From contig CAZIPM010000001.1 in the NCBI GenBank assembly GCA_964541395.1, positions 3,833-67,832 of the forward strand: a DNA stretch of 64,000 bases, written 5' to 3'. Position 1 is the first letter of the stretch. Every line of letters begins with the position of its first letter. The notes beneath the pieces are model-generated. The model ran no database searches and was not told the origin of the DNA. It was given only the letters and a program-made list of their open reading frames with translations. The position numbers were made by a program, and so were the translations under genes. Of this stretch, positions 22,118 to 64,000 are shown in pieces. Source of the DNA: an uncultured Gammaproteobacteria bacterium (lineage in GTDB: Bacteria; Patescibacteriota; Microgenomatia; UBA8517).

Positions 22118-22217
22118 AGACTGTATTTTAACATAGTAAACATCGATTTATTAGAAATATCAAAGTAATTGATTCCCCATATTGTTTTCTTTATATATTA
22201 AGTGTTTAATTAGGAAT

Positions 22218-23372
22218 ATGGACAAAGTTATTATTGTTATGCCCGCCTACAATGAGGCTGATAATATTGGCAAAATGATTGAGGTTTTATTTGAAGTAGA
22301 ATTTCCCAAAATAAAAGGTGTTGAAATGCATCTTTTTGTCGTAGATGACAAATCTCCTGATGGAACGGGAGATATTGTTAAAAAATACCAGAGTAAATAT
22401 TCCAAACTTCACCTTCTTCAAAAAGATAAGTCGGGATTGGGTTATGCTTATATCGCAGGATTTAAAAGGGCAATGGAAACATTAAAAGCCGATGCGGTTA
22501 TGGAAATGGATGCAGACTTTCAGCACCCACCAAGATTTGTCAAACCGATGGTTGAAGCATATCTAGCTGGTGCCGACTATGTTATAGGTAGCAGATATAT
22601 CAAAGGAGGATCTGTTCCTAAAGAATGGGCACTTTTCAGAAAAGCGATCAGTTATTTCGGCAATTTGTTTATTAGAATAGTTCTATTAAAGCCAAAATTG
22701 CATGATTTAACTACGGGCTTCAGACTTACCAGAGTTAAGGGAGTATTAGATCAAATTGATCTCAATAAACTAATGGAACCTGAAAGATTTGCATACAAAG
22801 TCGACCTTTTGTACAAGTCAATTAAAAACTCGAAAAAAGTTGTGGAGGTTCCTCTTGAGTTTGCTTCAAGAACAAAGGAAAAATCTAAATTTAATCCCAA
22901 AGAAATGGTCTCCACTTTCAAAGTAGCAATAATCTTGGGAATTAAAGACAAACAAAAAATAATTAAATTTGGAATAGTAGGCTTTACTGGATATCTTATA
23001 AATGCTTTCTTTTTAAATTTCTTTTCAAAATCAGGATTCCCAGAATGGTCATCTTGGGCACTCTCAACTGAACTGGCAATAGTCAACAATTTTACTTGGA
23101 ACAATTTATGGACCTTTAAAACTGATGAGATAAAAGGAATTGCTAATGTAATTAAAAAATTCCTACAGTTTAACTTGACATCAGCTGGCGCTCTTCTGAT
23201 ACAAACAGTTCTTGGAACTTTGGGAGTATATTTCTTCGGTTCTACATCAAGACAACTACTTCTTCCTTTCATAATTCTCTTTGTTGTTCTTCCATATAAC
23301 TATTTTATGTACACCAAAGTGATTTGGAAGAATAAATCGAAACCTGCAGTAAATCCTTCGATAGCCAAGTAA
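22218..23372 (+). CDS. GT2 polyprenyl-phosphate glycosyltransferase (Dpm1/ArnC/GtrB-like) fused to a C-terminal GtrA-like 4-TM domain
   Basis: MDKVIIVMPAYNEADNI...VVDDKSPDGTGDI...MDADFQHPP (GT2 DxD). The C-terminal third is hydrophobic (GtrA-like). I chose the ATG at 22218 with AGGAA upstream over the track's TTG at 22182. Confidence 0.7.
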   Translation: MDKVIIVMPAYNEADNIGKMIEVLFEVEFPKIKGVEMHLFVVDDKSPDGTGDIVKKYQSKYSKLHLLQKDKSGLGYAYIAGFKRAMETLKADAVMEMDADFQHPPRFVKPMVEAYLAGADYVIGSRYIKGGSVPKEWALFRKAISYFGNLFIRIVLLKPKLHDLTTGFRLTRVKGVLDQIDLNKLMEPERFAYKVDLLYKSIKNSKKVVEVPLEFASRTKEKSKFNPKEMVSTFKVAIILGIKDKQKIIKFGIVGFTGYLINAFFLNFFSKSGFPEWSSWALSTELAIVNNFTWNNLWTFKTDEIKGIANVIKKFLQFNLTSAGALLIQTVLGTLGVYFFGSTSRQLLLPFIILFVVLPYNYFMYTKVIWKNKSKPAVNPSIAK

Positions 23373-42075: not shown

Positions 42076-43673
42076 CCTTAATTATTCTTTTTTTATTTGC
42101 ACTCTTATTGCGTACCTGGCAACTCCAAAAATATCCTGATGCAGTTGATGAAGATGAAATGGCAATGGGTTATTATGGATATTCACTAGCTACAAATGGT
42201 ACTGATGAATATGGTAACAAATACCCAATCTATTTTAAATCTGTAGGAGATTATAAATATGGACTTCCTTTCTATTTTGCAACATTACCTGTAAAAATAT
42301 TTGGGTTAAATACTTTTTCAACCAGAGTTACCTCAGCGTTTTTTGGCTCACTTTCTGTAATTGCAATTTACTTTTTAGTGATGGAACTTTTTAAAATGCG
42401 AAAATTGTCTTTAATCTCATCTTTTATGATAGCCATCTCTCCAATGCACATACATTTTTCTAGAATCGCATATACCAACATCTTTGGTTCATTTTGGGCA
42501 ATATTAACAATAATATTTTTTATTAAAATAATAAAAAAGTTCGATTATAAAATTTTCATTTTTGGGATAATATCATTAATATCCTCCATCTATTCATATC
42601 AGGCGTTTAGAGTTATTCTTCCGTTGGTATTTTTAACTCTCCCCCTTTTCTTATTCAAAGAATTTAAAAAGGATTTGAAAAAGAAAATAATATTACCTCT
42701 ACTTGGAACAATAATTGTATTATTATCGTTTATTAACCCTGTATCACGCGCCAGATCAAGTAATAACACGTCATTGATAAATACCCCTGCTTTAGTTGAA
42801 AACTTTTCTGAAGATAACATTGCAGGAACTAAACTTCTGGTAACCAGAATATTTCACAATAAATTGGAAATTGCTGGATTAGACTTTGCAAAAAGATATT
42901 TGTGGTATTTTGATCCAAAGACAATATTTATTGAACAGAGTTCGTCATCAGGAAGACATTTTATTCCCGGTATAGGATTAGTGTATTTAGTTGAGCTACC
43001 CTTTTTTATCTATGGACTTCTGAAAATGAAAAAATCATTTGTGCCGCTTCTTCTTTTGGCGATTGCACCAATTCCGGGAGCAATGGTGGCCGATTCGGTC
43101 AGTTTCACTAGATCTGTATTTTTAATCTACCCCATTTCTATAATTTCAGCTTATGGAATTTACCAATTAACAGAAAAGTTTAAATTAAATATATTATTAC
43201 AAATCTTAATTGTTGGATTGTTTGCTGCCAACTTTTCTTTTTTTGTTCATCAATATATCGTTCATAAAACTTTTCACCACCCCTGGTATTCTGATGTCGG
43301 TTTGGTTGAAATGGTTGAGGGGGTTAAAAAAAAGATTGACAACTATGATAAGGTGGTAATTTCGAAAGGCCACTATATACCCTTTTTGTTTGTTAATAAA
43401 AAACTTGATGAAAAATTGATTTTTAATATGCCTCACGACTGCCCTGCTCTAGGTCAAAAGAAAGTTTTATATGTTTGTTTCGGTTATAAAGTGCCAAAAT
43501 CAGCCAGAGTTTTAGAAGTTTATCGTTTTAAAGACGGATTACCTGCGATCTTTTTGGTTGACTTTAATCAAAAGCAAGAAGGCTCTCTTCCTGATAGACT
43601 TGAATGGGGAGAAGAAATACCTACATATAAATTGGATGAAAAAGATTATTGGCCTACTGATAACCGTAGGTAG
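42060..43673 (+). CDS. GT-C family membrane glycosyltransferase (PMT_2/ArnT-like), subfamily B
   Basis: LRTWQLQKYPDAVDEDEMAMGYYGYSL...GNKYPIYFKSVGDYKYGLPFY. The DE motif and the first periplasmic loop pattern are shared with 54533, 57435(-), 59797, 61855 and 63432. Confidence 0.65.
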   Translation: MGTKVTLIILFLFALLLRTWQLQKYPDAVDEDEMAMGYYGYSLATNGTDEYGNKYPIYFKSVGDYKYGLPFYFATLPVKIFGLNTFSTRVTSAFFGSLSVIAIYFLVMELFKMRKLSLISSFMIAISPMHIHFSRIAYTNIFGSFWAILTIIFFIKIIKKFDYKIFIFGIISLISSIYSYQAFRVILPLVFLTLPLFLFKEFKKDLKKKIILPLLGTIIVLLSFINPVSRARSSNNTSLINTPALVENFSEDNIAGTKLLVTRIFHNKLEIAGLDFAKRYLWYFDPKTIFIEQSSSSGRHFIPGIGLVYLVELPFFIYGLLKMKKSFVPLLLLAIAPIPGAMVADSVSFTRSVFLIYPISIISAYGIYQLTEKFKLNILLQILIVGLFAANFSFFVHQYIVHKTFHHPWYSDVGLVEMVEGVKKKIDNYDKVVISKGHYIPFLFVNKKLDEKLIFNMPHDCPALGQKKVLYVCFGYKVPKSARVLEVYRFKDGLPAIFLVDFNQKQEGSLPDRLEWGEEIPTYKLDEKDYWPTDNRR

Positions 43674-45261
43674 TTTAAGTTGGGTGATAACTATGGTTAA
43701 AAGTGGTTGGTTGTATCCTTTTGGACTTGGGTTTTGGGGAGCAAACGGTCATGACGGTATTTGGCATATCGCCCTAGCCAAAGGATTGGTCAGGGGAAGT
43801 ATGGAAAACCCTGTCTTTTCAGGAGAGGTTTTAAAAAATTATCACTTTGGTTTCGATCTTTTTCTTGCAGCTTTACATAAAATTACGGCTATTCCTATTG
43901 AAAATTTTTACTTTCAGGTCTTACCCCCCGCATTTGCATTATTGATTGGTTTACTGACATATGTTTTGGTTATCAACTGGACCAAATCAAAAAATTCAGC
44001 TTTGTTTTCAGTACTTTTTGTTTATTTTGGTGGATCAGCAGGATGGTTAATAGGTCGGGGAGAGTCTACGTTTTGGGCGGCGCAATCTATTTCCAGTTTA
44101 ATTAATCCACCCTTCGCATTTTCATTAATTTTTATTCTATTGGGATTGATTTGTTTACTACGTAATAAAAAAATAGCCGCAATAATATTTTTTGGCCTGT
44201 TATTACAATTGAAAGCGTATGCAGCGGTACTTATTTTGGTAGGACTATTAGTTACCGGAATCTTTTCATTTATATCACAGAAAAAAACAGATCTCTTAAA
44301 AATATTTTTAGGATCATTGGCTTTAAATATGGTGTTATTTTTGTTATTTAAATCCGACAGCCTTGGATCTATCTTTGTCTGGCAGCCGTTTTGGTTTTTG
44401 GAAACAATGATGGGGTATACGGACAGATTGGGATGGCAGAGGTTTTATTCAGCCATGACCACATATAAGATGGGTAATGTTTACCTCAAGCAAATTTTAG
44501 CATACAACCTGGCTCTTGCGATTTTTGTCATTGGTAATTTTTGGACCAGACTTTTGTTTCTAAAAGATTTATTCAAAAAATTAGATAACTTAAAGATTTT
44601 ACTTCTTTGTGTAATCGCGGCAGGTATTGTTATACCAACTTTCTTTGTGCAAACCGGTACCCCTTGGAATACTATCCAATTTCTATATTATTCACTATTT
44701 TTTTCAGGTATATTAGCTGGAGTATCGTTATCAAATTTTAAAACAAGTTTCATAAAGCCTCTAACAATACTTTTTATTTTATTAACAATTCCCACAACTG
44801 TGATCACTTTAAAAGATGTGTATATACCAGGTAGACCTCCCGCAAAGTTGTCAATTGATGAAAACGAAGCTTTAGAATTCTTAAGCAGACAACCGGATGG
44901 TGTTGTGTTGACTTTTCCTTTTGATAAAAATAAAGCAAAAGAAGCTGAGAATAATCCACCGAGACCTTTGTATCTTTACGAATCAACAGCCTATGTCTCT
45001 GCATTTGGCGGTAAAGCCGTATTTTTGGAAGATGAAGTTAATTTAAATATAATGGGTTATGATTACCTTCAAAGAAGGAACGACATTGAAACTTGGTATA
45101 AAGAGAGTGATCCGGATAAAGCAAAAGATTTTTTAACCAAAAATAAAATAAGTTATGTCTATTGGGTTAAGCCTCAACGTGGTAATTTAAGTGAAGATGA
45201 GTTGGGACTAAATAAGATTTTTGAAAATAAAGAAGCCGTTATATACAAAGTGGTAAAATAA
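43636..45261 (+). CDS. polytopic membrane protein, putative glycosyltransferase/polymerase (GT-C-like)
   Basis: About 14 TM helices and a soluble C-terminal domain. The start is uncertain: the track start at 43558 overlaps the previous gene by 116 nt. Confidence 0.45.
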   Translation: MKKIIGLLITVGSLSWVITMVKSGWLYPFGLGFWGANGHDGIWHIALAKGLVRGSMENPVFSGEVLKNYHFGFDLFLAALHKITAIPIENFYFQVLPPAFALLIGLLTYVLVINWTKSKNSALFSVLFVYFGGSAGWLIGRGESTFWAAQSISSLINPPFAFSLIFILLGLICLLRNKKIAAIIFFGLLLQLKAYAAVLILVGLLVTGIFSFISQKKTDLLKIFLGSLALNMVLFLLFKSDSLGSIFVWQPFWFLETMMGYTDRLGWQRFYSAMTTYKMGNVYLKQILAYNLALAIFVIGNFWTRLLFLKDLFKKLDNLKILLLCVIAAGIVIPTFFVQTGTPWNTIQFLYYSLFFSGILAGVSLSNFKTSFIKPLTILFILLTIPTTVITLKDVYIPGRPPAKLSIDENEALEFLSRQPDGVVLTFPFDKNKAKEAENNPPRPLYLYESTAYVSAFGGKAVFLEDEVNLNIMGYDYLQRRNDIETWYKESDPDKAKDFLTKNKISYVYWVKPQRGNLSEDELGLNKIFENKEAVIYKVVK

Positions 45262-52064: not shown

Positions 52065-52955
52065 ATGAAGGTTTCAGTAATAATGCCCAATATCAATGGT
52101 AAAAGTATATTGGAAAAGAATTTACCTAAACTTTTTGAAGCCGTAGATAATCCCAATAACAAAATTCATGAAGTTATTATTGTCGATGATGGAAGCTGGG
52201 ATGACAGTATAGGATTTATAAATAAAAACTATAGCAAAAAAGTTAAGTTGATTAAACACAAAAAGAATCGTGGATTTTCGGCAGCAATAAATACCGGTGT
52301 TAGGGCTTCATCAGGAGATCTTCTTCTTTTGATAAATACTGACGTAATACCCGAAAAGAATTTTTTAACTTGGGTGTTGCCACATTTTAAAGACCCAAAA
52401 GTATTTGCAGTTTCCATTCATGAAAAAGGCTACGGATCAGCAGTCGGTTATTTTGGTGAAGGATATATTCAACTCGCAATGGGCAAAGAAAATGATAAAT
52501 TCCACAAAAGCTTCTATGTCAGCGGAGGCAGTGGAGTTTTTAGAAAAAGTATCTGGCGAGAATTAAATGGAATGGATGAAGAATTACTGTCTCCGTTTTA
52601 TTGGGAAGATATTGATCTCTGTTACAGAGCCGCTAAAAGAGGCTATATAAACCTTTGGGAACCGAAGGGTAATGTGGTTCACCAACACGAATCTACAATC
52701 TCCAAATTTCCCAGAAATTATGTTAATAGAGTCAAGGAAAGAAATCAACTTCTTTGCATCTGGAAAAATATCCAAAGTAAAAATTTAATCAAAAAACATA
52801 TTGTGGGAGTTTTAAACAGATTAATTCATCACCCCGGTTATATTAAAGTTGTTGTCATGGCGCTTTTTAGGATTCGAATCGCTTTAAAACAAAAAAGAAA
52901 AGAGATTAAAGAAAGTATTGTTTCCGATGAAGCTGTCTTTGCCCAATATAAATAA
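52065..52955 (+). CDS. GT2 glycosyltransferase
   Basis: VSVIMPNINGKSI...IIVDDGSWDDSI...INTDVIP...YWEDIDLCYR. Confidence 0.7.
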   Translation: MKVSVIMPNINGKSILEKNLPKLFEAVDNPNNKIHEVIIVDDGSWDDSIGFINKNYSKKVKLIKHKKNRGFSAAINTGVRASSGDLLLLINTDVIPEKNFLTWVLPHFKDPKVFAVSIHEKGYGSAVGYFGEGYIQLAMGKENDKFHKSFYVSGGSGVFRKSIWRELNGMDEELLSPFYWEDIDLCYRAAKRGYINLWEPKGNVVHQHESTISKFPRNYVNRVKERNQLLCIWKNIQSKNLIKKHIVGVLNRLIHHPGYIKVVVMALFRIRIALKQKRKEIKESIVSDEAVFAQYK

Positions 52956-52959
52956 GTAT

Positions 52960-53802
52960 ATGAAAACTCAAAAAGAAAAAATTACCTTATCCATTGTGAT
53001 TGTTAACCTGAACACGGTTGATTTGACACGGGGTTGTATAGAATCTATTTACAAACACAAACCAAAGTTTTCATTTGAAGTTATGGTAACGGACAATGGA
53101 TCAAATGATGGATCGGTTGAAATGTTAAAAATCTTTGACAAGAAATATGATAATTTCACCCTTATTTTAAATGACACTAATACCGGTTATGGTAAAGCGA
53201 ATAATCAAGGAATTAATAAATCAAATGGGGAATACATTCTTCTTCTAAATAACGACACAATAGTCTATAAAGACTCATTGGATAAACTCGTAGAATTTGC
53301 CGAAAAAACTCCGGATGCAGGAGTTGTCGGTAGCCGGTTGTTAAACATTGATGGGACACTTCAAATGTCCTGTTACCATTTTCCGACAATAACCAATGCA
53401 ATTAAAGAATATTGGTTTGGAAAAAAAGGATTATTTGAAAAATTTGCGCCTCTTGGGAAAAAGCCAGTTACTGTAGATAGTGTGGTAGGTGCTGCGTTTT
53501 TAATAACCCCAGAAGCCAGAAAGAGAGTTGGAATTTTGGACGAAAGATACTTTGCTTATTTTGAAGACGTTGATTATTGCAGACAAACTTGGAAAAAGGG
53601 ATTGAAAGTCTATTATCTGCCTGAATCAGTAATTAAACATTATCACGGAGCGACATTCAAAAAACTTGCAGATGACGGAAATAGGTGGAGAAAACTTATA
53701 CCAAGCAGCATTATTTACCATGGCCTTCTTAAACACTACATTCTATTTGTCATACTTTGGACAGGACAAAAGTGGCAGAAAGTCTTAAAATTATTGGGTT
53801 AG
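52960..53802 (+). CDS. GT2 glycosyltransferase
   Basis: LSIVIVNLNTVDLT...VTDNGSNDGS...LNNDTIV...YFEDVDYCRQ. ATG at 52960. Confidence 0.7.
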   Translation: MKTQKEKITLSIVIVNLNTVDLTRGCIESIYKHKPKFSFEVMVTDNGSNDGSVEMLKIFDKKYDNFTLILNDTNTGYGKANNQGINKSNGEYILLLNNDTIVYKDSLDKLVEFAEKTPDAGVVGSRLLNIDGTLQMSCYHFPTITNAIKEYWFGKKGLFEKFAPLGKKPVTVDSVVGAAFLITPEARKRVGILDERYFAYFEDVDYCRQTWKKGLKVYYLPESVIKHYHGATFKKLADDGNRWRKLIPSSIIYHGLLKHYILFVILWTGQKWQKVLKLLG

Positions 53803-53818
53803 CTAGGTAAACTATCCG

Positions 53819-54061
53819 CTATCTTCTATTAAACCTGGCGATAAGATTCTTTTCAGCTACTGCTGCAGCCATAATTATCTCGGCAGCAGTTGTTCTAGTT
53901 TGAGGAGTTGAATCACTTTCATTAAGGATAATTGCACTTTCTACCATTATTTCCTCTATCCTTTCTGATATTTTAGATCTTGCAAGTTTATGTTTATTAA
54001 CAGCGCCAGCTATACCTTCTTCAAGAGTTTCAGCTACTGTTTTTATTCTCCCCAACTCCAT
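53819..54061 (-). CDS. hypothetical small protein in an opposite-strand two-gene cassette
   Basis: 80-aa ORF, inverted relative to the surrounding operons. Confidence 0.3.
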   Translation of the reverse strand: MELGRIKTVAETLEEGIAGAVNKHKLARSKISERIEEIMVESAIILNESDSTPQTRTTAAEIIMAAAVAEKNLIARFNRR

Positions 54062-54193
54062 GCGTGTAGTTTACCACTGTTGTACTTTAAATCAATCTAT
54101 TTACTGTTACTAACAACATATTTTTGTTAATATCAAAACTAATAACGAAATTTATTTATTCAAAAATTATGTAATTTATTCTGAAGACAAGAT

Positions 54194-54460
54194 CTATTCA
54201 CAATCTTTATCATTATTAATATTAAGTTTAAAATATTTTAATAGTCGGTCTTCTACAACTGAAATAGCGAATACTGATTTTATGGCTTCACCTTTCGTTT
54301 TTAATGGAAATTTTGAGTTAGCGATGAGTTTAGTCGGAATTGCTGTTAATAAGGTAGCTTCATATTCTATATCATGAATTGTGACAGGTACTTTCTTCTT
54401 TCCAATATTGTCAAACCAAGCCTCTTCAATTTCTTGAATTAGTTTTTGGTACTCATTCAT
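54194..54460 (-). CDS. hypothetical small protein in an opposite-strand two-gene cassette
   Basis: 88-aa ORF. Confidence 0.3.
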   Translation of the reverse strand: MNEYQKLIQEIEEAWFDNIGKKKVPVTIHDIEYEATLLTAIPTKLIANSKFPLKTKGEAIKSVFAISVVEDRLLKYFKLNINNDKDCE

Positions 54461-54532
54461 ATGGAATTATAAAATAAATTGACAAAACTTCATAATTATT
54501 TAGATAAAAAGTGTTATTATTAAAAGAAGTTT

Positions 54533-56233
54533 ATGAAAAAGTTTTTTTTGAAAAATTGGTTATTAATTGTTATTTTGGTTACCGCTTCATTTTTAAGAAC
54601 ATATAAATTAAACCAAGTTCCAATATCACTTTTTGGTGATGAATTGGATGTAGACTATCATGCTCTCTCGATATTAAAAACTAGTCGTGATTACTCAGGT
54701 AATTTTATACCTTTTCACTTTCAGAGTCTGGCAGAATGGAGAACTCCTTTGTATTTATATTCAGCAGTTCCAACAGTAAGTCTTTTTGGAATTAGTCCTC
54801 TGGGGGTCAGATTACCTGCTGCTATTTATGGCATATTGGGAGTTTTTGGCATTTATCTTTTAGTTAAACAACTAACAAAAAAAGAATCTCTGGGTTTAAT
54901 AACCGGTTTTTTACTAGCGGTGAATCCTTGGCATTTGCAGTATTCAAGAGCCGGTTTTGAAGTAACTATGCTTCTTTGTTTTCTGCTATTTGGTTTATAT
55001 TTCTTTTTTAAATCTTTCGAAAAACCTAAGTTACTTTGGTTGTCTACCAGTTTACTTGTTATAACTCCACTTATTTATTCAACTGCCAAACTCTTTACTC
55101 CGATACTTTTTGTCTTTTTGTTTTTTGCTTACAGGAAAGAAATATTATCTCTGCCTAAAAAATACCTTAACTATGCTGTGGCATCCTTAATAATTTTGGG
55201 TGGAATAACAACATATGCCACACTTTTTTCTGGTGGTAGTCAGAGATTCGGTTACATTGGTGTTTTTACAGATCCAATCATTGAGCCTGAAGTTGGTGTT
55301 GATAGATTGAGAGATTCACTAATGCGGGGTGAGAAAGGTGTAGGTTTACAACCAAAATTCATTGACAGAGCCATCCATAATAAATTCACATTTGTGGGTG
55401 AGAGAATAGTAAATAATTACATCACTTCTTTATCTTTTGATTTCCTTTTTGTAAATGGAGATCCTAACCCAAGGCATATGATTGATGGAATGGGAATGTT
55501 TTATAAAGTAGAAGTTATTACTCTTCTTTTTGGTTTGTTACTCTTTTTTACGGATAAAAATGTTGATATCAAAATAAAACGATTGATAGCAGTTTGGATT
55601 TTAGCAGGAATATTACCTGCATCCATAACGCGCGACGGAGGAAATCATGCATCAAGATTAATATTAATTTTACCACCCCTTATTTTTCTTATGTCTTATG
55701 GATTTTCAAAATTTTATGATTTATCCAAAAAAATGACTGCTGTTTACTTATTGGTACTATTCGCTTTTATCGGTCTTTATTTACACAACTATTATGTACA
55801 TTACCCATGGGACAGTGAAAGATGGTGGCATGCAGGCTGGTGTGATGCAGTAGGTGAAGTAAAGAAAGTTGATGAAAGTTATGAAAAGATAATCATATCA
55901 ATGGCTGATGAACCAGCCTGGATCTTTTTTGCAGGGTGTTACCAGTATGATCCCTTTATATGGCAAAAAGAATTTCCTTTAGGAAATGATGTGGAAGTCA
56001 AAGGATTCGGAAAAATATCACACACTGATAAATTCTATTTTGGCAAACCGGAAGGTGGAATATACTCTTTAAAGGATAATTTGGATGAAAAAAGCCTGTA
56101 CCTTGCCTCCGCTAAAGAGATACCTTGGAATCTTATTATGGAACCGACCAGGGTTCCGGATGGGCTAAATTTAGTTAAAGCAATACCATTTCCATCAGGG
56201 GAACCTGCTTTTTATCTATTGACTAAAAAGTAA
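54533..56233 (+). CDS. GT-C family membrane glycosyltransferase (PMT_2/ArnT-like), subfamily B
   Basis: LRTYKLNQVPISLFGDELDVDYHALSIL..., multi-TM, soluble C-terminal domain. A T8 tract sits at 54542-54549. Confidence 0.65.
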   Translation: MKKFFLKNWLLIVILVTASFLRTYKLNQVPISLFGDELDVDYHALSILKTSRDYSGNFIPFHFQSLAEWRTPLYLYSAVPTVSLFGISPLGVRLPAAIYGILGVFGIYLLVKQLTKKESLGLITGFLLAVNPWHLQYSRAGFEVTMLLCFLLFGLYFFFKSFEKPKLLWLSTSLLVITPLIYSTAKLFTPILFVFLFFAYRKEILSLPKKYLNYAVASLIILGGITTYATLFSGGSQRFGYIGVFTDPIIEPEVGVDRLRDSLMRGEKGVGLQPKFIDRAIHNKFTFVGERIVNNYITSLSFDFLFVNGDPNPRHMIDGMGMFYKVEVITLLFGLLLFFTDKNVDIKIKRLIAVWILAGILPASITRDGGNHASRLILILPPLIFLMSYGFSKFYDLSKKMTAVYLLVLFAFIGLYLHNYYVHYPWDSERWWHAGWCDAVGEVKKVDESYEKIIISMADEPAWIFFAGCYQYDPFIWQKEFPLGNDVEVKGFGKISHTDKFYFGKPEGGIYSLKDNLDEKSLYLASAKEIPWNLIMEPTRVPDGLNLVKAIPFPSGEPAFYLLTKK

Positions 56234-57483
56234 TGAAAAAATTCTTTTTGATTGTAATTTTTGCTTTAGTATTTAGATTAGTCCTCTCTTTTATCGTTTG
56301 GCATCCGGATCTTAATAATCATTCGGATTGGGGAATTAGGTTTTTTGAATATAGAGCATCAAGGTTTTATTCACCTGAGACTAATGTCTGGAGTTTTACC
56401 TGGCCTAATCAGCCTCCCGGATCAATTTATATGTTTGCTGGTGTCAGGAAATTGTTTGAATTTGTATTTAATGTATTCTGGCTGATAAACGTTAAAATTC
56501 CAGCTTTTCCTTCAATAATTGTTTCCTACTTCGAAACTAATTTATATCCAGCCCTTTTAAAACTACCCGCAATACTTTCCGACTTTGGAATTGCTTATTT
56601 AATTTACAAGATGTGTGGTAAAAAATGGGCTAGTGTTGTTTGGCTTCTAAATCCTTTAGTTTGGTACAATTCCGCAGTTTGGGGGCAATATGATGCGGTA
56701 ATAAATTTCCTGGCACTTTTGTCATTTTATTTACTAACCAAAAAGAAATTGATTTTAGGTGCACTTTTTCTTGCTCTAAGTCTTTTTACCAAAGCCTCCC
56801 TTTTGATATTTGCACCAATTTGGATAATTTATTCACTAACTCAAAAATACAAAACCTCCGAATTCGTTAAAGCATTGACAATAACTTTAATTGTTATAGT
56901 TTTACTGACACTTCCTTTTTCCAACGGAAATCCAATTATTTGGCTTTATGAGCTTTATCAAAAGAAAGTGTTTACGCAACAACTTCATGTAATTACCGCT
57001 AATGCCTTTAATTTATGGGCAGGAGTAGCGGGCATCCATGAACGACCTGACACGCTTCCGTTTCTTGGTTTAACTTATCAACTGTGGGGTTATATTCTTT
57101 TTGCTTTGGTATATATTCCGTTACTGTTCCGTGTAGCCAAGAACGATAATGTAAAAACACTAGTTTGGATGTTGGCTCTTGCTGCATTTGCCAGTTTTAC
57201 TCTCTTAACAAATATGCATGAAAGATATCTTTATCCACTTTTCCCATACTTAACAATTCTTTTAGGATTGGGTTTGGTTAAGCATTGGTATTACTGGCTG
57301 ATTACCATAATTAGTTTATTGGGGATGTATAATTTTTGGTTTACACCGAAAATAGATACGATTATAAATTTTCTTTCTTTTGGAGATAGGCTTACACCAA
57401 GAGTTTTAGGATTTGTACTTACGATTATGTTTTTCTATTTAGTTTCTTTGGGATTGGTTTCAAAACCGCGTAAAATTACCTGA
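56233..57483 (+). CDS. polytopic membrane protein, DUF2029/GT87-like mannosyltransferase family (GT-C)
   Basis: 416 aa, about 10 TM helices, N-terminal loop ...HPDLNNHSDWGIRF.... TAATG overlap with the upstream gene. Confidence 0.5.
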   Translation: MKKFFLIVIFALVFRLVLSFIVWHPDLNNHSDWGIRFFEYRASRFYSPETNVWSFTWPNQPPGSIYMFAGVRKLFEFVFNVFWLINVKIPAFPSIIVSYFETNLYPALLKLPAILSDFGIAYLIYKMCGKKWASVVWLLNPLVWYNSAVWGQYDAVINFLALLSFYLLTKKKLILGALFLALSLFTKASLLIFAPIWIIYSLTQKYKTSEFVKALTITLIVIVLLTLPFSNGNPIIWLYELYQKKVFTQQLHVITANAFNLWAGVAGIHERPDTLPFLGLTYQLWGYILFALVYIPLLFRVAKNDNVKTLVWMLALAAFASFTLLTNMHERYLYPLFPYLTILLGLGLVKHWYYWLITIISLLGMYNFWFTPKIDTIINFLSFGDRLTPRVLGFVLTIMFFYLVSLGLVSKPRKIT

Positions 57484-59117
57484 CCATCGGAGTCGTTAAC
57501 CTCAAAAACTTTTGTTAAATTATGAAGCGCCACTTCATTGTCTGAAATGGTGACAGTGTCTCCTACTAAAACAACTTTTCGGTAGTTTGTTTCCCCCCAC
57601 TCTATTGGTCTGAATTCAAGGTTGTTAAAATTATGGGTAAAGTTAAATTTCTTATCATAATAATAATTTTTAACAATATCTTTATCTTGGTCTTTTTGCA
57701 AAATTTGCGGAGGTATTTTCAGGTAGAATGCCATTTGGATATAGGCGATGTCTTGTGGTTTTACCCTTTTTGTCTGGTCTATAATAAAAGTCTGGTTTGG
57801 GTGATCTTTAATATACTGAGCCAGTTGTGGATACTGAATTCCCCAAACATATTTTTTTTGATTTGGAAGAAAATTAAAATATGATCTGTAGAAAACTATT
57901 AATGAAAACATGAGTACTAACAGAACAGTTGGAATAACAAATTTATTTGGTCTTTTCAGGATCATTTTATCAATACCTACTGCTATCAGAAAAGAGACGG
58001 GAAGAAGCAGGGAATATGTTCTTTGGATATGAAACGGGTCTTGTGTTAATGCTCCTGTTAATGGGGTTATTAAAAACAGTGTCAATAAAAAAATACTAAT
58101 TTCTGATTTTTTGTTCTTAATTATTAAATAAAGACCTGTAAGATAAGGAATAATCATCCAGGAATAAAAAACGGAAAGATTCGGTATAGACCTTTGAGGA
58201 TCCGGGTCAGGTAGAAAAAACAAAGATCGGGGAGACAAATAAGTTATGTATTTTGCCAGGAAGTCTCTGGTGAAAGCAAGAATTACTGAAATTTGATAAG
58301 GTAAATAATTTTGCAATTTATCTATTTGATCGACTGAAATGTTGGATAGTAGATAATTGGATTTAGTATAAAAAGATGGTGTGGTGGCCATAAAAAGATT
58401 AGGGATCTGGATAATTGCAGCAATTATAAATCCAAGAACAATATGTCTTATATCTTTTTTAAAATTAATCTTTTTAAAAAATATAAACAAAAATGCAATT
58501 AAAAGTAAGGGACTGATAATTTTTTGTGAATAATCTGTGTATGTAGCCAGTGATATTAAAGGTAAAGACAACATAAAAAGTTTATTATTGGATATGGACT
58601 TCAAAAGCATTAAGACACAGGTTATAAAAAAGAGAAAAGCTAAGTTTTGTTCATAGCCTATACGACTGAAAAATATAAGCCAGGGAGTAATGGCGAAAAA
58701 TAAGGTGGATATGAATAAAGTGTATTTGGATTTAAAAATATTAAGCTCTTTAAGTAGAAAATAGTAAATATATATCGATGCAACACCACACAATACAGAT
58801 AAGAATCTTGCCGAAAACACGTTCAATCCTAAAAGAGCAATTATAGGTACATTAAAATATATGTATAATGGCGGCGTGTAAGACCCGAAAAGTTTGAACG
58901 CCATAGGGAATGCTTTACCATACTCATCTTTACCTGTCATTAAGATTGAATAGCTGTTATAGGCACTTCCTGCTTCATCGATATACAGACCCGGTGGATT
59001 ACTGTCAAGTCTAAACATATAAATGAAAGCTCCCAAGAAAATTATAGCCAGAAGAATAGTGCCTTTAAGATATTTAGATTTAATCAGTCGATTATATAAT
59101 TGATTTAGCATAGGCAA
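57435..59117 (-). CDS. GT-C family membrane glycosyltransferase (PMT_2/ArnT-like), subfamily B
   Basis: FRLDSNPPGLYIDEAGSAYNSYSILMTGKDEYGKAFPMAFKLFGSYTPPLYIY. Confidence 0.65.
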   Translation of the reverse strand: MPMLNQLYNRLIKSKYLKGTILLAIIFLGAFIYMFRLDSNPPGLYIDEAGSAYNSYSILMTGKDEYGKAFPMAFKLFGSYTPPLYIYFNVPIIALLGLNVFSARFLSVLCGVASIYIYYFLLKELNIFKSKYTLFISTLFFAITPWLIFFSRIGYEQNLAFLFFITCVLMLLKSISNNKLFMLSLPLISLATYTDYSQKIISPLLLIAFLFIFFKKINFKKDIRHIVLGFIIAAIIQIPNLFMATTPSFYTKSNYLLSNISVDQIDKLQNYLPYQISVILAFTRDFLAKYITYLSPRSLFFLPDPDPQRSIPNLSVFYSWMIIPYLTGLYLIIKNKKSEISIFLLTLFLITPLTGALTQDPFHIQRTYSLLLPVSFLIAVGIDKMILKRPNKFVIPTVLLVLMFSLIVFYRSYFNFLPNQKKYVWGIQYPQLAQYIKDHPNQTFIIDQTKRVKPQDIAYIQMAFYLKIPPQILQKDQDKDIVKNYYYDKKFNFTHNFNNLEFRPIEWGETNYRKVVLVGDTVTISDNEVALHNLTKVFEVNDSDGQVILRGFETNPKETK

Positions 59118-59766
59118 TTGATTGAATTAAAGAAAAAACAAACAAAAGCAAAAAAGGGATTATAAATTTCTTGTTTTCTATTACTTTTAATGTCCCAAGA
59201 TAAATAAGGATTACCATTAAAGGAAACAGGGTAAAAGGACCGAGGGGGTTATTGTTTCCGATAACACTAAGAAGAATAATCGGAGAAAGTGCTGTCAATA
59301 AAGCAATTATATGATCCTTCTTTACTTGGAAGATACCGATTAGAAAGAGGGGTAGTAAACCATAGGGAAATTTTTCAAATTCCTGAAACCAAAATCTGCC
59401 TCTGGGGAAATTTGAAAAGAAAAACAGATTTAGATCAAATACTTCAGAAAAGTTAAATTTTATTTTATTAAAAGTCGTATCATAAAGATTCAAGATAAAT
59501 TGTTTGATGAAGTTTATTCCAAATCCGTTTAATTTAGGAAATGTTAAATCACTCATAATAGTGGTTTTTATTTGCAGCAATAACGCTATAAGAAAAACTA
59601 CTCTTAATAAGTTTTGGTATTTATTGGTATTTTTTTGAAATGTAAGCCATAAAAGAAAGGTAGCCAAAATTGTTAAAAATGCTATATAGAAATTATCGCT
59701 AAAAAGTTTCCAAATCCAGAGATTTGAGAACAGGGAAAATATCAAAATCAGGGACTTTTTAATCAT
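59092..59766 (-). CDS. GT-C-associated accessory membrane protein of about 220 aa (paralog of 61274..61870)
   Basis: ...NFPRGRFWFQEFEKFPYGLLPLFLIGIFQVKKDHIIALLTALSPIILLSVIG aligns with ...FMPRSYFQAGDGTKFSPKGVEPIAGILFPFWIMGLISIIKDKYFKPLYLVLGTSLFAFLLG of 61274. Confidence 0.45.
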   Translation of the reverse strand: MIKKSLILIFSLFSNLWIWKLFSDNFYIAFLTILATFLLWLTFQKNTNKYQNLLRVVFLIALLLQIKTTIMSDLTFPKLNGFGINFIKQFILNLYDTTFNKIKFNFSEVFDLNLFFFSNFPRGRFWFQEFEKFPYGLLPLFLIGIFQVKKDHIIALLTALSPIILLSVIGNNNPLGPFTLFPLMVILIYLGTLKVIENKKFIIPFLLLFVFSLIQSIAYAKSII

Positions 59767-59796
59767 ATCAATATATTAACATTTTTAAGGTATAAT

Positions 59797-61284
59797 TTGG
59801 TTATGTTGAAATCATTAATGACGGTTAAAATTCTTCTTGTTATGGTACTACTCCTGGCTGCAATTCTCAGATTAATAGGTTTAACTCAATATCCGGTAGG
59901 TTTCACTCCTGACGAAGCATCTTTTGGTTATGACGCTTACAGCATTTTGTTGACAGGAAAGGACCAGTGGGGAAATACGCTTCCTTTAATCCTGAAATCA
60001 TTTGGTGATTACAAAGCACCCATCTATGCGTATTTGACAGTTCCTTCCGTCTTTATATTTGGTTTAAACAAATTTGCAGTCAGACTTCCTAACGCCATCT
60101 TGGGTGTACTGGCCGTCTACGTTGTTTATCTTTTGGTAACAAAACTGTTTAAAAACAAAAATATAGGTTTAATTACAGCTTTTCTGGTAGCAATTTCACC
60201 CTGGCATATAATGATGAGCAGAGGTGCTTTTGAGGCTAATCTGATAACTTTATTTATACCGTTGGGGATTTATTTGTATTTACAGGAAAAATACTATCTG
60301 TCCGCAATTACTTTTGGTCTAACCATGTTTACTTATCACACGGGTAAGTTTTTGGCACCATTAATTTTTGTTTTGCTGGTATTTCTTTATCATAAAAATA
60401 TAAAAAAACTTATCAAACCAACAATGGTATTTTTATTTTTTATAGCACTGACTATTTTTACCATTCTAGGAGGAGCAGGGGGTAGAGTTATCGAAAGAAG
60501 TATCACGCAGGGAGCATTGGAAGACGGAGCAAAAGTAAAAATAGAAAATATAAATAATGGAATGAACCCGATTGTGGCACGTTTACTACATAACAAATAC
60601 CAAATTGTAGCCAGCCGCTTTGTCTATAATTATCGTCAATACTTTTCATTAAAATTTTTGCTGTTTGAAGGACCGGCCGAAACCACCTACGGGATGATGA
60701 AAGGTCTGGGTGTATTGACTTATCTTGAGATGTTAGGATTTTTAACCGGTTTATATTTTTTAATAAGATCCAAGAATATTGATCCTAAAATAAAATATTT
60801 GATACTGCTCTGGCTTTTAATTGCACCTGTTCCTGCCAGTTTGGCAACCGGGGTTGGTTATGCAGCCAATCGTTCAGTTTCAATGATACCGGTTATCCAA
60901 GTAATATCAGGATTTGGTTTATTCAATTTAATAGACAAAAGAATTTATCTAAAGTATATTGCATTGATAATAGCCTTAGTAGGATTAACGGTGTTTATCA
61001 AAAAGTACTTAATTGAATCACCAATTACTTCTGCTCAGGGAATGCTTTCGAAGAATTTGATGATTGCAAACGAATATGTTGCCAAGTCAGCGGGAAACGA
61101 TACCGTAATTGTGCCAAGGACTTTATCTGAACCGCAGATTTATATCGCCTTTGTTTCTAAGATGGATCCGAGGTTTTATCAAAATGAGAGTAGAGGTTGG
61201 AATTTTGAGGAATTGGGTGTTAATTGGGTAGATCAAATACCGGAATATAGATTGGGAAAGTATTTATTTAAAAATGAAGAATAA
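59797..61284 (+). CDS. GT-C family membrane glycosyltransferase (PMT_2/ArnT-like), subfamily B
   Basis: LRLIGLTQYPVGFTPDEASFGYDAYSILLTGKDQWGNTLPLILKSFGDYKAPIYAY. The likely ATG is at 59803. Confidence 0.65.
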   Translation: MVMLKSLMTVKILLVMVLLLAAILRLIGLTQYPVGFTPDEASFGYDAYSILLTGKDQWGNTLPLILKSFGDYKAPIYAYLTVPSVFIFGLNKFAVRLPNAILGVLAVYVVYLLVTKLFKNKNIGLITAFLVAISPWHIMMSRGAFEANLITLFIPLGIYLYLQEKYYLSAITFGLTMFTYHTGKFLAPLIFVLLVFLYHKNIKKLIKPTMVFLFFIALTIFTILGGAGGRVIERSITQGALEDGAKVKIENINNGMNPIVARLLHNKYQIVASRFVYNYRQYFSLKFLLFEGPAETTYGMMKGLGVLTYLEMLGFLTGLYFLIRSKNIDPKIKYLILLWLLIAPVPASLATGVGYAANRSVSMIPVIQVISGFGLFNLIDKRIYLKYIALIIALVGLTVFIKKYLIESPITSAQGMLSKNLMIANEYVAKSAGNDTVIVPRTLSEPQIYIAFVSKMDPRFYQNESRGWNFEELGVNWVDQIPEYRLGKYLFKNEE

Positions 61285-61870
61285 TAAATTAATTTTAATA
61301 GTATTTTTATTGACTGCGGGAATCTGGTGGAACTTTTTTAACTTAAAGGAGATGGTGGTTCAATGGTCTCAAGCTCCAGATTATTTTAGTAAGAATATGA
61401 GATCTTTTTTTTCGGATGAAAATCTGATGAAAATTCAGGAAGTCAGATGGAATGCATTCGGGGAAAAAAGAGAAGACAACTTATCCAAAATTTATTACAA
61501 CAAAGGCTATATTTTGGTAGACAATTTCTTTTCCTATGTTAGTTATTTCATGCCCAGATCATATTTCCAAGCAGGAGACGGTACGAAATTTTCACCCAAA
61601 GGAGTGGAACCAATTGCTGGCATTCTCTTTCCATTTTGGATAATGGGATTAATTTCGATAATAAAAGATAAATATTTTAAGCCATTATATTTGGTTCTGG
61701 GGACTTCATTGTTTGCCTTTTTATTAGGACAACGGAATTTAGCTTTCCTTTTCCCTGTGATGTTGGTTTATATTTACATCGCTTCTAAATCTTTAGGTAA
61801 AAAACAATTTATATTTGTTTTGCTCTACACTCTATTTATCATAGGAAGGGTAATATGGCTAAAAAGTTAG
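61274..61870 (+). CDS. GT-C-associated accessory membrane protein of about 200 aa (paralog of 59092..59766)
   Basis: See 59092..59766. It sits between two PMT_2-like genes with overlapping junctions. Confidence 0.45.
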   Translation: MKNNKLILIVFLLTAGIWWNFFNLKEMVVQWSQAPDYFSKNMRSFFSDENLMKIQEVRWNAFGEKREDNLSKIYYNKGYILVDNFFSYVSYFMPRSYFQAGDGTKFSPKGVEPIAGILFPFWIMGLISIIKDKYFKPLYLVLGTSLFAFLLGQRNLAFLFPVMLVYIYIASKSLGKKQFIFVLLYTLFIIGRVIWLKS

Positions 61871-63435
61871 TAATTGTTTTAATATTTTTACTCGCATTCT
61901 TCTTAAGAACCTGGAATTTGTCAAAATATCCTGTTTCTTTGTCAATGGATGAAGCCGCCATCGGATACAATGCCTATTCTATTTTAAAAACAGGTCATGA
62001 CGAATATAAAGAATTCCTACCATTAACATTTAGATCAGCCGGAGACTACAAACCACCTGTTGATTTTTATCTTACAGTACCTTCAATTTTTCTTTTTGGA
62101 TTAACCGAATTCAGTATCCGACTACCTGTTGCATTAGTTGGTTCATTAACAGCTGTTGCCTTTATCTATCTGCTTATTAATTTAGGACTTTCTTTTAAAG
62201 CATCTGCCTTCGGAGGTTTTTGGCTGGCAGTACTTCCTTGGCATATTCATTTTTCCAGGGCATCTTTCGAGGCAGTAACAGCCCTCTTCTTTCTTATATC
62301 CGGTTCAGCACTTTTTATTTCCTGGGTAAAAAACAAAAAAACGTTGTATGCGTTTCTTACAGCCCTATCCTTCGGTTTGTCTGTTTGGTCATATCATGCA
62401 GAGAGACTATTTGTTCCAATGTTGGTTGTCTTTCTTTTTATAATTTTTAAACCAAAAAAGAACCTAGTCATCTTCTTTTTGGTCACGGCAATTCTGGCAA
62501 TTCCGTTTTTAAGATTGGCACTTTTTACTCCGGCAATTAGAGAGAGAGCTTCGTCTACCTCCATCTTAAGAGAGCAGTCATTAGTATTGGGACTGCATAC
62601 CTCAAATTATGAGAATTTTGTTGAAAAAGTATTTGATAATGACATTTATCTTGTTTATAGTCATTGGTTGGGAAAGTATCTTAACTATTTTGATATTCGT
62701 TTCTGGTTTTGGAAAGGCATGCAATTTACCCCACCGGGTTATCCTGATCTGGGACTTCTATATCTTGTTGATTTACCTGTATTTTTACTAGGTTTATATG
62801 TCTTGGTCAGATCAAAAAATAAAAATCTGAAAGCATTATCGGTATTTTGGTTTTTTGCAGGACCGTTTCCTGCATCACTAACAATGAATGAACAACATCC
62901 ATTAAGAGCTTTAACTTGGCTACCCTTTTTTGGAATTGTAGTTGCCATGGGTTTTGAATACATAACCGCTAAATATAAAACTTTTAAAATTTATTTGATT
63001 TATATAGCACTATTTTTGTTTAACTTCATTTACTTTTTTGATATTTATACGCATCAATCTCCAAGATTTTTTTCAGAGTATTGGTCTTACGGATATAAAG
63101 AATCCACAATATATGCTTGTGAAAACAGGGACAAATACGACGAAATAGTTGTTACCGATACTTTCGGAAGTGACGGACCATTAAACACAGGTCTTCCTTA
63201 TCTTTACTGGTTGGTTTATTGTGATTGGGATCGAGACAGTTTTTTAAGTACCGGAAAACATCCGGAAAAACTTAGATTTAGACGACCAAACAAAGAAGAT
63301 TTTTCGGATGGTAAAAAGAAACTGTTAATCGGATCCTCTTGGGATTTTTTGGAAGGCCTGTGTGACAAAGGAAAAATAGTTAAAACAATTTATTATTTAA
63401 ATGGTAAAGAAGGGTTTCTTTTAATAGAACCATGA
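61855..63435 (+). CDS. GT-C family membrane glycosyltransferase (PMT_2/ArnT-like), subfamily B
   Basis: LRTWNLSKYPVSLSMDEAAIGYNAYSILKTGHDEYKEFLPLTFRSAGDYKPPVDFY. Confidence 0.65.
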   Translation: MAKKLVIVLIFLLAFFLRTWNLSKYPVSLSMDEAAIGYNAYSILKTGHDEYKEFLPLTFRSAGDYKPPVDFYLTVPSIFLFGLTEFSIRLPVALVGSLTAVAFIYLLINLGLSFKASAFGGFWLAVLPWHIHFSRASFEAVTALFFLISGSALFISWVKNKKTLYAFLTALSFGLSVWSYHAERLFVPMLVVFLFIIFKPKKNLVIFFLVTAILAIPFLRLALFTPAIRERASSTSILREQSLVLGLHTSNYENFVEKVFDNDIYLVYSHWLGKYLNYFDIRFWFWKGMQFTPPGYPDLGLLYLVDLPVFLLGLYVLVRSKNKNLKALSVFWFFAGPFPASLTMNEQHPLRALTWLPFFGIVVAMGFEYITAKYKTFKIYLIYIALFLFNFIYFFDIYTHQSPRFFSEYWSYGYKESTIYACENRDKYDEIVVTDTFGSDGPLNTGLPYLYWLVYCDWDRDSFLSTGKHPEKLRFRRPNKEDFSDGKKKLLIGSSWDFLEGLCDKGKIVKTIYYLNGKEGFLLIEP

Positions 63436-64000
63436 TCTATCTAATTTTATTTTTAACAATTGTTCTTAGATTTTTATTTACATCGGAAATGCCCCCGTCT
63501 CTTAATTGGGACGAGATAAGTCACGGTTATAATGCTTATTCAATTTTAAAAACAGGTAGTGACGAATGGGGTAATTTTCTACCATCCATCTTTCGGGCAT
63601 ATGGTGATTACAAATTACCTGTTTATATTTACCTGACCTCAATCTCCGAATTATTTTTTGGTCTAACTCCCTTTGCTGTCAGATTACCCAATATACTAGC
63701 GGGGATAGGTACTGTTTATTTTACTTACTTATTGGTTTTAAGACTTTTCAAAGAGAATAAACAACTGGCTCTTTTGTCAGCTTTCCTTGTAGCAGTTGAA
63801 CCGTGGACTTTTTTTATAGGAAGACCTGCGTTTGAAGCCAACTTGGCGTCATTTTTCTTTGTAGCTGCAACTTATTTATTTTTAAAAGGTGTTCAAGAAA
63901 ATAAATCATCTTTACCAAGTATTATTTTGTATGGACTTACGGTCTGGACTTATAATTCATACCGCATTTTTACACCCTTGTTTTTAATTACACTGCATAT
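63432..64000 (+). CDS. GT-C family membrane glycosyltransferase (PMT_2/ArnT-like), subfamily B; 3' end off window
   Basis: ATG at 63432 overlaps the upstream TGA. MIYLILFLTIVLRFLFTSEMPPSLNWDEISHGYNAYSILKTGSDEWGNFLPSIFRAYGDYKLPVYIY. Confidence 0.6.
   Translation, partial: MIYLILFLTIVLRFLFTSEMPPSLNWDEISHGYNAYSILKTGSDEWGNFLPSIFRAYGDYKLPVYIYLTSISELFFGLTPFAVRLPNILAGIGTVYFTYLLVLRLFKENKQLALLSAFLVAVEPWTFFIGRPAFEANLASFFFVAATYLFLKGVQENKSSLPSIILYGLTVWTYNSYRIFTPLFLITLH

Follow-up and report, generated by a model that had tools for sequence, protein, structure and literature searches.

Two small membrane-protein genes, here designated acc1 and acc2, lie in the last 6.5 kb of the 64,000-nucleotide stretch of DNA analyzed in this study (the window), each of them immediately 5' to a gene for a full-length GT-C glycosyltransferase. 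The features of this region are listed below by window coordinates; TM denotes a transmembrane helix, EL an external loop, aa amino acids, and P1 and P2 two clades of the neighbor-joining (NJ) tree of GT-C enzymes described further on.

57435..59117, minus strand: partner GT-C of acc1, 560 aa, full length, clade P1 (Pfam PMT_2 match and NJ tree).
59092..59766, minus strand: acc1, 224 aa, seven TM helices; predicted non-catalytic, truncated GT-C paralog, equivalent to GT-C TM5-7, EL4 and TM8-11.
59359..59436, minus strand: conserved, predicted periplasmic motif of acc1, DLNLFFFSNFPRGRFWFQEFEKFPYG (aa 111-136), defined by invariant or near-invariant columns and the hhalign register.
59767..59796, no strand: 30-bp divergent spacer between acc1 and the GT-C gene at 59797, read from the sequence.
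59797..61284, plus strand: GT-C of a non-partner NJ clade, 495 aa (Pfam PMT_2 and PMT).
61274..61870, plus strand: acc2, 198 aa, five TM helices; predicted non-catalytic, truncated GT-C paralog.
61493..61612, plus strand: EL4-like motif of acc2, YYNKGYILVDNFFSYVSYFMPRSYFQAGDGTKFSPKGVEP (aa 74-113), defined by invariant columns and hhalign alignments.
61855..63435, plus strand: partner GT-C of acc2, 526 aa, full length, clade P2 (Pfam PMT_2 and PMT).
63432..64000, plus strand: next GT-C gene of the tandem array, cut by the window end; catalytic loop NWDEISHGYNAYSIL, E 3e-62 with the window GT-C hidden Markov model (HMM).

All of the open reading frames (ORFs) that the initial annotation had named in this region were recovered at the same coordinates, and the genes at 59797, 61855 and 63432 are GT-C genes of the PMT_2 type as judged from Pfam, their translations and the window GT-C HMM. 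No copies of acc other than these two are present in the window. Each accessory gene was indeed found directly 5' to a GT-C gene with an overlapping junction. The acc1 stop (59092) overlaps the start of its partner by 26 nucleotides (nt) if the TTG at 59117 is used and by 20 nt if translation begins at the ATG at 59111, and the end of acc2 (61870) overlaps the ATG of its partner (61855) by 16 nt, with a Shine-Dalgarno-like GGAAGGG just upstream. The end of the GT-C gene at 59797 (61284) likewise overlaps the start of acc2, by 11 nt; this gene adjoins acc2 but is not its conserved partner. The divergent starts of acc1 and of the GT-C gene at 59797 are separated by 30 bp, as had been described, and with a spacer of only this length there is no space for two conventional promoters. 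A perfect TATAAT occupies 59791-59796, directly against the TTG start at 59797 (an in-frame ATG follows at 59803), and the transcript of this GT-C gene may be leaderless or nearly so. A scan for promoters and terminators returned fewer sites than in shuffled sequence and was uninformative.

acc1 and acc2 are real genes. Compared with the closest related locus (L007 in the collection described below), the ratio of nonsynonymous to synonymous substitution rates (dN/dS) was 0.157 for acc1 and 0.052 for acc2, and 0.107 was obtained for acc2 against a second locus, L001. No difference from the flanking GT-C genes (0.05-0.12) is apparent, and the values indicate purifying selection. Length is conserved among the homologs (197-207 aa in the case of acc2, 221-263 aa in that of acc1), at identities down to 28-47%. 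A joint acc profile matched 505 representatives of 50%-identity clusters at E <= 1e-3, 347 of them at E <= 1e-10, and nearly all of the 150 matches listed were 170-260 aa long. None of the homologs carries a Pfam domain, and their source records describe them as hypothetical proteins; neither Pfam nor NCBIfam has a model for acc1 or acc2, and the matches obtained there (DUF6328, DUF3267 and a kinase model) were all below threshold and amount to noise. The acc1-type motif was found at 26 loci in species-representative genomes. The named assemblies among these are all Woesebacteria, Blackburnbacteria or 'Patescibacteria group'; the remaining metagenome-assembled genomes (MAGs) are titled 'uncultured Gammaproteobacteria', a label at odds with the rest of the set. 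The acc proteins are a new and sizeable family that lies outside any curated family and has so far been seen only in Patescibacteria-type assemblies. One Woesebacteria MAG, MGGS01, contains two diverged acc1-type modules on different contigs (L011 and L027, with 48% and 31% identity to the query), so that the presence of several acc-GT-C pairs in one genome is not peculiar to the window.

Profile comparisons place both accessory proteins, as homologous fragments, in the GT-C superfamily. The joint acc alignment (A1) matched the alignment of five window GT-Cs with 96.6% probability (E 5.9e-10), with acc columns 68-221 corresponding to GT-C residues 238-395. Taken alone against the window GT-Cs, the acc1-like family gave 89.5% (E 2e-6) and the acc2 family 54.5% (E 1.2e-4); against an alignment of 55 GT-C sequences that are not acc partners, the probabilities rose to 97.1% (E 7e-11) for the acc1-like family and 96.9% (E 1.8e-10) for acc2, and an alignment of 82 acc sequences reached 97.9% (E 4.4e-13). 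Control comparisons with a reversed GT-C alignment (E 0.035-0.2) and with a Wzx-like alignment (E 0.09-0.49) all had probabilities below 2%, and the similarity is therefore not an artefact of TM composition. The resemblance of the accessory proteins to the C-terminal TM region of the GT-Cs, which had been proposed from the sequence by eye, is borne out by these matches (E 4e-13 to 1.8e-10), and the pairing of LIAPVPASLATGVGY with LSPIILLSVIGNNNPLGPF on which the proposal drew is the one that hhalign gives. The acc proteins thus show the homology to EL4 and the C-terminal TM helices that is expected of members of the superfamily. Sequence searches of the PDB with the GT-C profile and with the acc profile found nothing meaningful; Foldseek against the PDB gave no significant match, with STT3 chains ranking first.

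The two accessory proteins begin at different points of the GT-C fold. The acc1-type profile aligns with the P1 partner alignment over 193 columns (acc 11-227 with GT-C 155-384), which means that the three N-terminal helices of acc1 correspond to GT-C TM5-7. In acc2 a single N-terminal helix takes the place of TM5-7 and is followed by an EL4-like loop and four TM helices; its alignment to the GT-Cs begins only at about residue 240. By these alignments acc1 lacks TM1-4 and acc2 lacks TM1-6. Since the alignment begins after TM4 or later (GT-C position 155 or so for acc1, 240 or so for acc2), EL1 with its catalytic Asp-Glu pair is absent from both. This pair (D47-E48) is invariant in the window GT-Cs and has no counterpart in acc, where the loop between TM1 and TM2 of acc1 is only 2-3 residues long. 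The C-terminal periplasmic domain of the GT-Cs, about 150 aa, is also missing. All of the neighboring GT-Cs match PMT_2 or PMT, but neither acc1 nor acc2 does so even at E <= 1, and at the same cut-off neither matches PMT_4TMC (PF16192) or any other Pfam model above noise. It should be noted that the window GT-Cs themselves have no PMT_4TMC match in scans at E <= 1 and E <= 0.01; the resemblance to that domain is architectural only. An Arg in EL5, the loop between TM9 and TM10, is invariant in the window GT-Cs (R366 in the enzyme at 57435-59117) and is presumably the counterpart of the donor-phosphate Arg of a PMT enzyme, MtPMT R441 (PMC12331936), with which it is equated by position and not by alignment. 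At this place proteins of the acc1 type read IGNNNPLGPF, with no Arg, and those of the acc2 type read GxRN, with an Arg two residues off. The acc proteins therefore lack the defining features of a catalytic GT-C and are predicted to be non-catalytic. Nor do they resemble the small flippases of about four TM helices and 110-130 aa: neither protein matched GtrA_DPMS_TM, EamA or SMR in Pfam or NCBIfam, and the acc architecture, with 5-7 TM helices and a periplasmic loop of about 65-85 aa, is unlike that of the GtrA or ArnE-ArnF type.

Hydropathy, helix prediction and the positive-inside rule fit an N-in, C-out topology for both acc1 and acc2. With this topology, the conserved polar motif lies on the periplasmic face, as EL4 does in the enzymes. 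In the acc1 family the region of DLNLFFFSNFPRGRFWFQEFEKFPYG has the consensus DPNLYFFANHPRERVGxxEFEKFPY and is the equivalent of the GT-C EL4 motif YFSPxFLFxxGDPNPRH; in acc2 the conserved sequence is YYNKGY...SPRxYFQAGDGTxFSPKGVEP, and YYNKGYILVDNFFSYVSYFMPRSYFQAGDGTKFSPKGVEP is in register with the GT-C motif HNK...NY..YFSPxFLFxxGD. In the terms used for PMTs, acc consists of EL4, including the horizontal helix, and of the four-helix C-terminal module. In PMTs, the groove that takes up the lipid-linked donor is bounded by EL4 with horizontal helix HH3, and the phosphate of the donor is bound by EL5, which is part of the C-terminal module (PMC12331936; PMC12586580).

That the homologous PMT region (HH3 of EL4 and the four TM helices) forms the donor groove and the phosphate site (PMC12331936, PMC12586580) brings in the idea that acc is an independent lipid-carrier handler, which would bind polyprenyl-phosphate or its sugar-charged form and flip, deliver or recycle it with no fixed complex. 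The conserved basic and acidic residues in the EL4-like region would suit such a role, as would one relative that is fused to a cytoplasmic GT2 domain. However, the EL5 Arg, equated by position with the PMT donor-phosphate Arg (PMC12331936), is not conserved in the acc1 type; flipping roles in the window are already covered by a GT2-GtrA fusion (22182-23372) and a Wzx-like protein (38024-39487); and acc follows just two clades of GT-Cs, which is not what a general handler should do. We therefore consider a free carrier handler improbable. The relative in question (P0167, locus L036, 1018-2888) is a 486-aa protein in which a GT2 domain, similar to the product of window gene 52918-53802, stands at the N-terminus of an acc1-type domain (aa 268-479); its gene overlaps by 4 nt the next one, which encodes a GT-C with a NIDEAS loop. 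It is a single example, on a contig of 2.9 kb.

To place the adjacency of acc and GT-C genes in context, 36 related loci were gathered and their neighborhoods were scored with HMMs built in this analysis. In all 32 loci with enough downstream DNA, the next same-strand gene after acc encodes a GT-C of 526-578 aa; three loci are cut by contig ends and could not be scored. The order of acc followed by GT-C recurs at locus L017 and at the fusion locus, L036. The junctions range from an 80-nt overlap, when the longest ORF is taken, to a 4-nt gap, and most are overlaps of 8-20 nt. The upstream neighbor of acc, on the other hand, varies among same-strand GT-C genes, opposite-strand GT-C genes, opposite-strand Wzx-like genes (five loci) and unrelated genes, and in L005 and L006 acc and its GT-C gene form a two-gene unit while everything around them is on the other strand. 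When 96 GT-Cs from the related loci and the window were arranged in an NJ tree, the acc partners fell into two clades only. P1 contains the window enzyme at 57435-59117 and goes with acc1-type genes; P2 contains the window enzyme at 61855-63435, grouped with its orthologs from L001, L002, L007 and L008, and goes with acc2-type genes. About ten other GT-C clades, including those of the window genes at 54533 and 59797, are never preceded by acc. Because the pairing is conserved and clade-specific, the adjacency does not simply reflect the density of GT-C genes. Co-occurrence of acc with GT-C genes in other genomes, a check that had been suggested, is seen at all 32 scorable loci.

Some neighbors of these pairs deserve mention. 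In five genomes (L010, L013, L016, L018 and L024, at about 4.4-5.96 kb on the minus strand) an acc1-type pair is divergent from a conserved gene whose product, about 495 aa long, resembles a Wzx/MOP-family flippase on inspection by eye; this arrangement hints that the acc-GT-C pair acts on a flipped, lipid-linked glycan. In L005 and L006 (1-3952), the GT-C island adjoins genes for a relaxase (Replic_Relax), a TraG/TrwB-like coupling ATPase and Fic, which suggests that the island is near a mobile or conjugative element.

The same gene order bears on the possibility that acc1 and acc2 are decaying remnants of GT-C genes in a rearranging tandem array, adjacent to intact genes because of dense packing. 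Twelve window genes between 26 and 64 kb match the profile of the window's own GT-Cs, most of them with a Pfam PMT_2 match, and there are further GT-C-like genes (PTPS_related, YfhO and Alg6/8-like), so that any gene here is likely to border a GT-C; moreover, gene order differs among the relatives. Decay is nevertheless effectively refuted by dN/dS values of 0.05-0.16, by intact reading frames with length and motifs conserved down to about 28% identity in about 500 clusters, and by clade-specific downstream partners in 32 of 32 cases, among them the isolated opposite-strand pairs that stand beside non-GT-C genes. The idea that acc is the detached C-terminus of an upstream GT-C was also rejected: acc1 has no upstream gene on its strand, the GT-C at 59797 has its own TM8-11, and the upstream neighbors vary. 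A programmed frameshift that would fuse acc to its partner is at variance with the topology, in which acc ends in the periplasm and the GT-C begins in the cytoplasm. No acc-GT-C fusion was seen among the joint-profile or A5-profile matches listed (up to 8000 candidates for A5, an alignment described below); with the acc C-terminus outside and the GT-C N-terminus inside none is expected, and this result is uninformative.

Taking co-expression, clade-specific co-inheritance, the GT-C-derived fold and the conserved periplasmic motif together, we read acc as a dedicated non-catalytic partner. More fully, and with moderate confidence, we propose from sequence comparison that acc1 and acc2 derive from the rear half of a PMT_2-type GT-C, exist as separate proteins that are catalytically inert, and would serve as non-catalytic partners of the enzyme encoded downstream. 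The observation of a conserved pair is solid, and from the genomic linkage we infer a physical association of acc with its GT-C and a mechanism of the following kind. The two proteins would be made from one transcript, with translation probably coupled, and acc would sit in the membrane with its enzyme as a dedicated non-catalytic subunit, or pseudo-protomer. There it could add a second EL4-like periplasmic element that holds the polyprenyl-phosphate-sugar donor or the acceptor, or it could stabilize the enzyme. PMT-type GT-Cs work as obligate dimers (PMC12586580), the C-terminal four-TM module of PMTs carries donor-phosphate ligands (PMC12331936), and pseudoenzymes and accessory subunits of GT-C fold or GT-C enzymes are known in PIGU and Pbn1 (PMC12653191). 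The initial annotation had suggested that the small protein might be a split-off subunit or a chaperone for the transferase; homology to the GT-Cs and the strict clade-specific linkage make a subunit or helper role the most economical one, in keeping with that suggestion.

Three points weigh against a dedicated subunit. The partner GT-Cs keep a complete EL4, the four-TM module and all catalytic residues: the P1 enzyme at 57435-59117 has the catalytic Asp-Glu in IDEAGS (aa 46-51), its own EL4 motif (aa 293-310) and the EL5 Arg (aa 366), and the P2 enzyme at 61855-63435 has MDEAAI (aa 31-36). Thus, there is no obvious missing part for acc to supply, and it cannot be rescuing a dead enzyme. Secondly, one P1 GT-C (L031, 9219-10838) has no acc of its own, although an acc-partner pair is present in its operon. 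Finally, gene linkage alone would also fit a role in the same pathway that involves no complex formation.

The completeness of the partners is also what would be expected if acc were a transient chaperone for the assembly or insertion of the eleven TM helices of the GT-C, absent from the mature enzyme; it might, for example, pair briefly with the conserved N-terminal module of the GT-C. The universal order of acc before GT-C with overlapping junctions agrees with this, and acc mimics the enzyme's own C-terminal module, as a surrogate for intramolecular packing would. However, the conserved polar motif NHPRER..EFEKFPY looks more like an element close to a ligand or active site than a generic packing surface, and a helper of this kind accompanies only two of about ten GT-C clades despite their common fold. 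We know of no precedent for such a chaperone, and regard this explanation as doubtful.

A comparison of EL4 between partner and non-partner enzymes raised a more specific version of the partner proposal. In most non-partner subfamily-B GT-Cs, an H-N-K motif precedes the YFSP helix of EL4 by about 16 residues (Lys or Arg in 42 of 55 sequences, His or Asn in 50 of 55); the non-partner GT-C at 59797, for instance, retains it as LHNKYQ (aa 264-269). The motif is lost in P1, where Lys or Arg is found in 3 of 27 and His or Asn in 1 of 27, the window enzyme at 57435-59117 being among those that lack it, and P2 reads D-N-D, with Lys in none of five (FDNDIY in the window enzyme at 61855-63435, in place of the HNK of the non-partners). 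Both acc families keep a Lys in register, as YNK in acc2 and, by eye from the alignments, as GRK in the acc1 type, and either acc profile scores better against the non-partner GT-Cs than against its own partners. One hypothesis, drawn from just two evolutionary events and from the alignment of a variable loop, is that acc keeps an ancestral EL4 element that its partner has lost. The corresponding mechanism, in which acc completes the donor or acceptor site of its partner in trans and the two chains form a composite active site, seems to us quite unlikely.

The two accessory proteins had been described as clear paralogs. They are related, since BLASTP aligns them with 27% identity over 138 aa (E 1e-5) through the motifs on which that description was based, and profiles of the separate subfamilies, acc2 (A4) against acc1-like (A3), match in the same register with 82% probability (E 1e-5). 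The similarity is therefore significant both ways, but it is remote, and 'clear' overstates it. The stronger match of A4 to A5 (E 1.8e-20), and the recovery of acc2 members by A5, cannot count as independent, since some of the sequences in A5 were retrieved with the joint acc profile.

The further proposal of a duplicated acc-GT-C module was not supported. The P1 and P2 partner clades are not sisters in the NJ tree, in which the deep nodes are weak, and in bootstraps of the shared module acc1 and acc2 were each monophyletic in 60 of 60 replicates, but grouped together in only 19 of 60, with distances near saturation. In addition, the acc families match each other at E 1e-5, whereas their matches to full-length GT-Cs that are not partners reach about 1e-10. 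The families may go back to a single ancient truncation, after which the pair was duplicated, or to two separate truncations; the non-sister partner clades, the 19 of 60 grouping and the equal or better matches to GT-Cs make these histories indistinguishable. If the acc families did arise by independent truncation, they would represent convergent evolution of a split, two-chain GT-C. A symmetrical divergent arrangement of two modules is likewise not what is found, because the gene that faces acc1 across the 30-bp spacer is the non-partner GT-C gene at 59797 and not acc2. The arrangement in the window is also specific to its lineage: in L001 and in L008/L009, acc2 and its partner belong to an array that lies entirely on the plus strand, and a second Alg6/8-like gene, of 418 aa, stands at the place of the inverted acc1-GT-C pair of the window and L007.

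Several known systems resemble parts of what is proposed here. The C-terminal variable module of PMTs (EL4/HH3 plus PMT_4TMC, PF16192) is a domain of the enzyme, whereas acc is a separate polypeptide with no PF16192 match and, in the acc1 type, no EL5 Arg. PIGU (Gab1) of the glycosylphosphatidylinositol transamidase is, like acc, a GT-C relative that lacks the catalytic EL1 acidic motif and a non-catalytic membrane subunit (PMC12653191). However, PIGU is a eukaryotic protein with the complete GT-C fold and works with a protease complex; acc, which occurs in bacteria of the candidate phyla radiation and is encoded beside an active GT-C, is truncated to half size. The full fold with a replaced EL1 that marks PIGU-like proteins is not seen in acc, which lacks the helices in question and shares only a non-catalytic GT-C origin. 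Pbn1/PIG-X is a dedicated non-catalytic partner on which one GT-C, Gpi14/PIG-M, depends, and it contacts TM8, TM12 and the EL4 helix of that enzyme (PMC12653191); it differs in that it has a single TM helix and a large, beta-rich luminal domain and is unrelated to GT-Cs, whereas acc is polytopic, nearly all membrane-embedded and GT-C-derived. In the Pmt1-Pmt2 heterodimer and the Pmt4 homodimer both protomers are full-length and catalytic, and acc lacks the catalytic half. By analogy, the role of acc would be comparable to that of the second protomer of dimeric PMTs (PMC12586580) or to that of the Pbn1 and PIGU subunits (PMC12653191). Non-catalytic GT-C partners are thus already known as an idea; a truncated GT-C paralog locked to an active GT-C was not found in the curated libraries or the literature searched. 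If the proposed role is correct, acc would be, as far as we have found, the first bacterial protein that derives from a GT-C and is a dedicated partner of one.

In every domain of life, GT-C enzymes build glycans of the cell surface. What is being learned about how they are supplied with donors, how they choose acceptors and why many of them have to oligomerize comes from a handful of structures. A free-standing EL4 and four-helix module that is under selection beside particular GT-C lineages would offer a simple system for studying the function of this module by itself. The proposal would also give a likely role to about 500 clusters of hypothetical proteins in Woesebacteria and related Patescibacteria, whose genomes have unusually large GT-C islands.

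The wider setting of the acc genes is of this kind. The window has a low G+C content (about 0.33), and the nearest relatives of its proteins are in assemblies of Candidatus Woesebacteria and other Patescibacteria. A single long glycan-biosynthesis island, with GT2 and GT4 enzymes, methyltransferases, a Wzx-like flippase, a YfhO-like protein and GT-Cs, takes up the window from about 25.9 kb to its end, and the acc region is the last part of this island. Rfam and tRNA scans found nothing. Further upstream, a gene on the plus strand (12238-15219) encodes a 993-aa RmlB-like dTDP-glucose 4,6-dehydratase that is apparently interrupted by an intein: a sub-threshold match to Pfam Intein_splicing (28.1 bits against a cut-off of 35.8 bits) covers aa 140-472 and is flanked by the dehydratase halves. 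Genes for rmlA (11276-12169), rmlC (19731-20315) and rmlD (20312-21217) are nearby, and the glycans of the island are therefore probably rhamnose-containing. The plus-strand gene at 22182-23372 encodes the 396-aa fusion of a GT2 domain to a GtrA/DPMS TM domain mentioned above, which is likely to be a polyprenyl-phosphate-sugar synthase with its own GtrA-like module; it is the sole GtrA-like element among window ORFs of at least 100 aa.

Within the island, a plus-strand ORF of 591 aa (39450-41225) has no Pfam match but is matched by the window GT-C profile at E 1e-46, and is thus a divergent GT-C. Another plus-strand ORF of 567 aa (43558-45261) has no Pfam match and matched nothing in any search tried. 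The otherwise gap-free plus-strand operon has a break of 730 bp at 53802-54533, in which there are two minus-strand ORFs (53819-54061, 80 aa, and 54194-54460, 88 aa), neither with a Pfam match. The plus-strand gene at 56233-57483 encodes a 416-aa polytopic protein with weak resemblance to Alg6/Alg8 and to the AZOBR_p60025 family; this Alg6/8-like gene is present as two tandem copies in L001 (6044-8540), L008 and L009.

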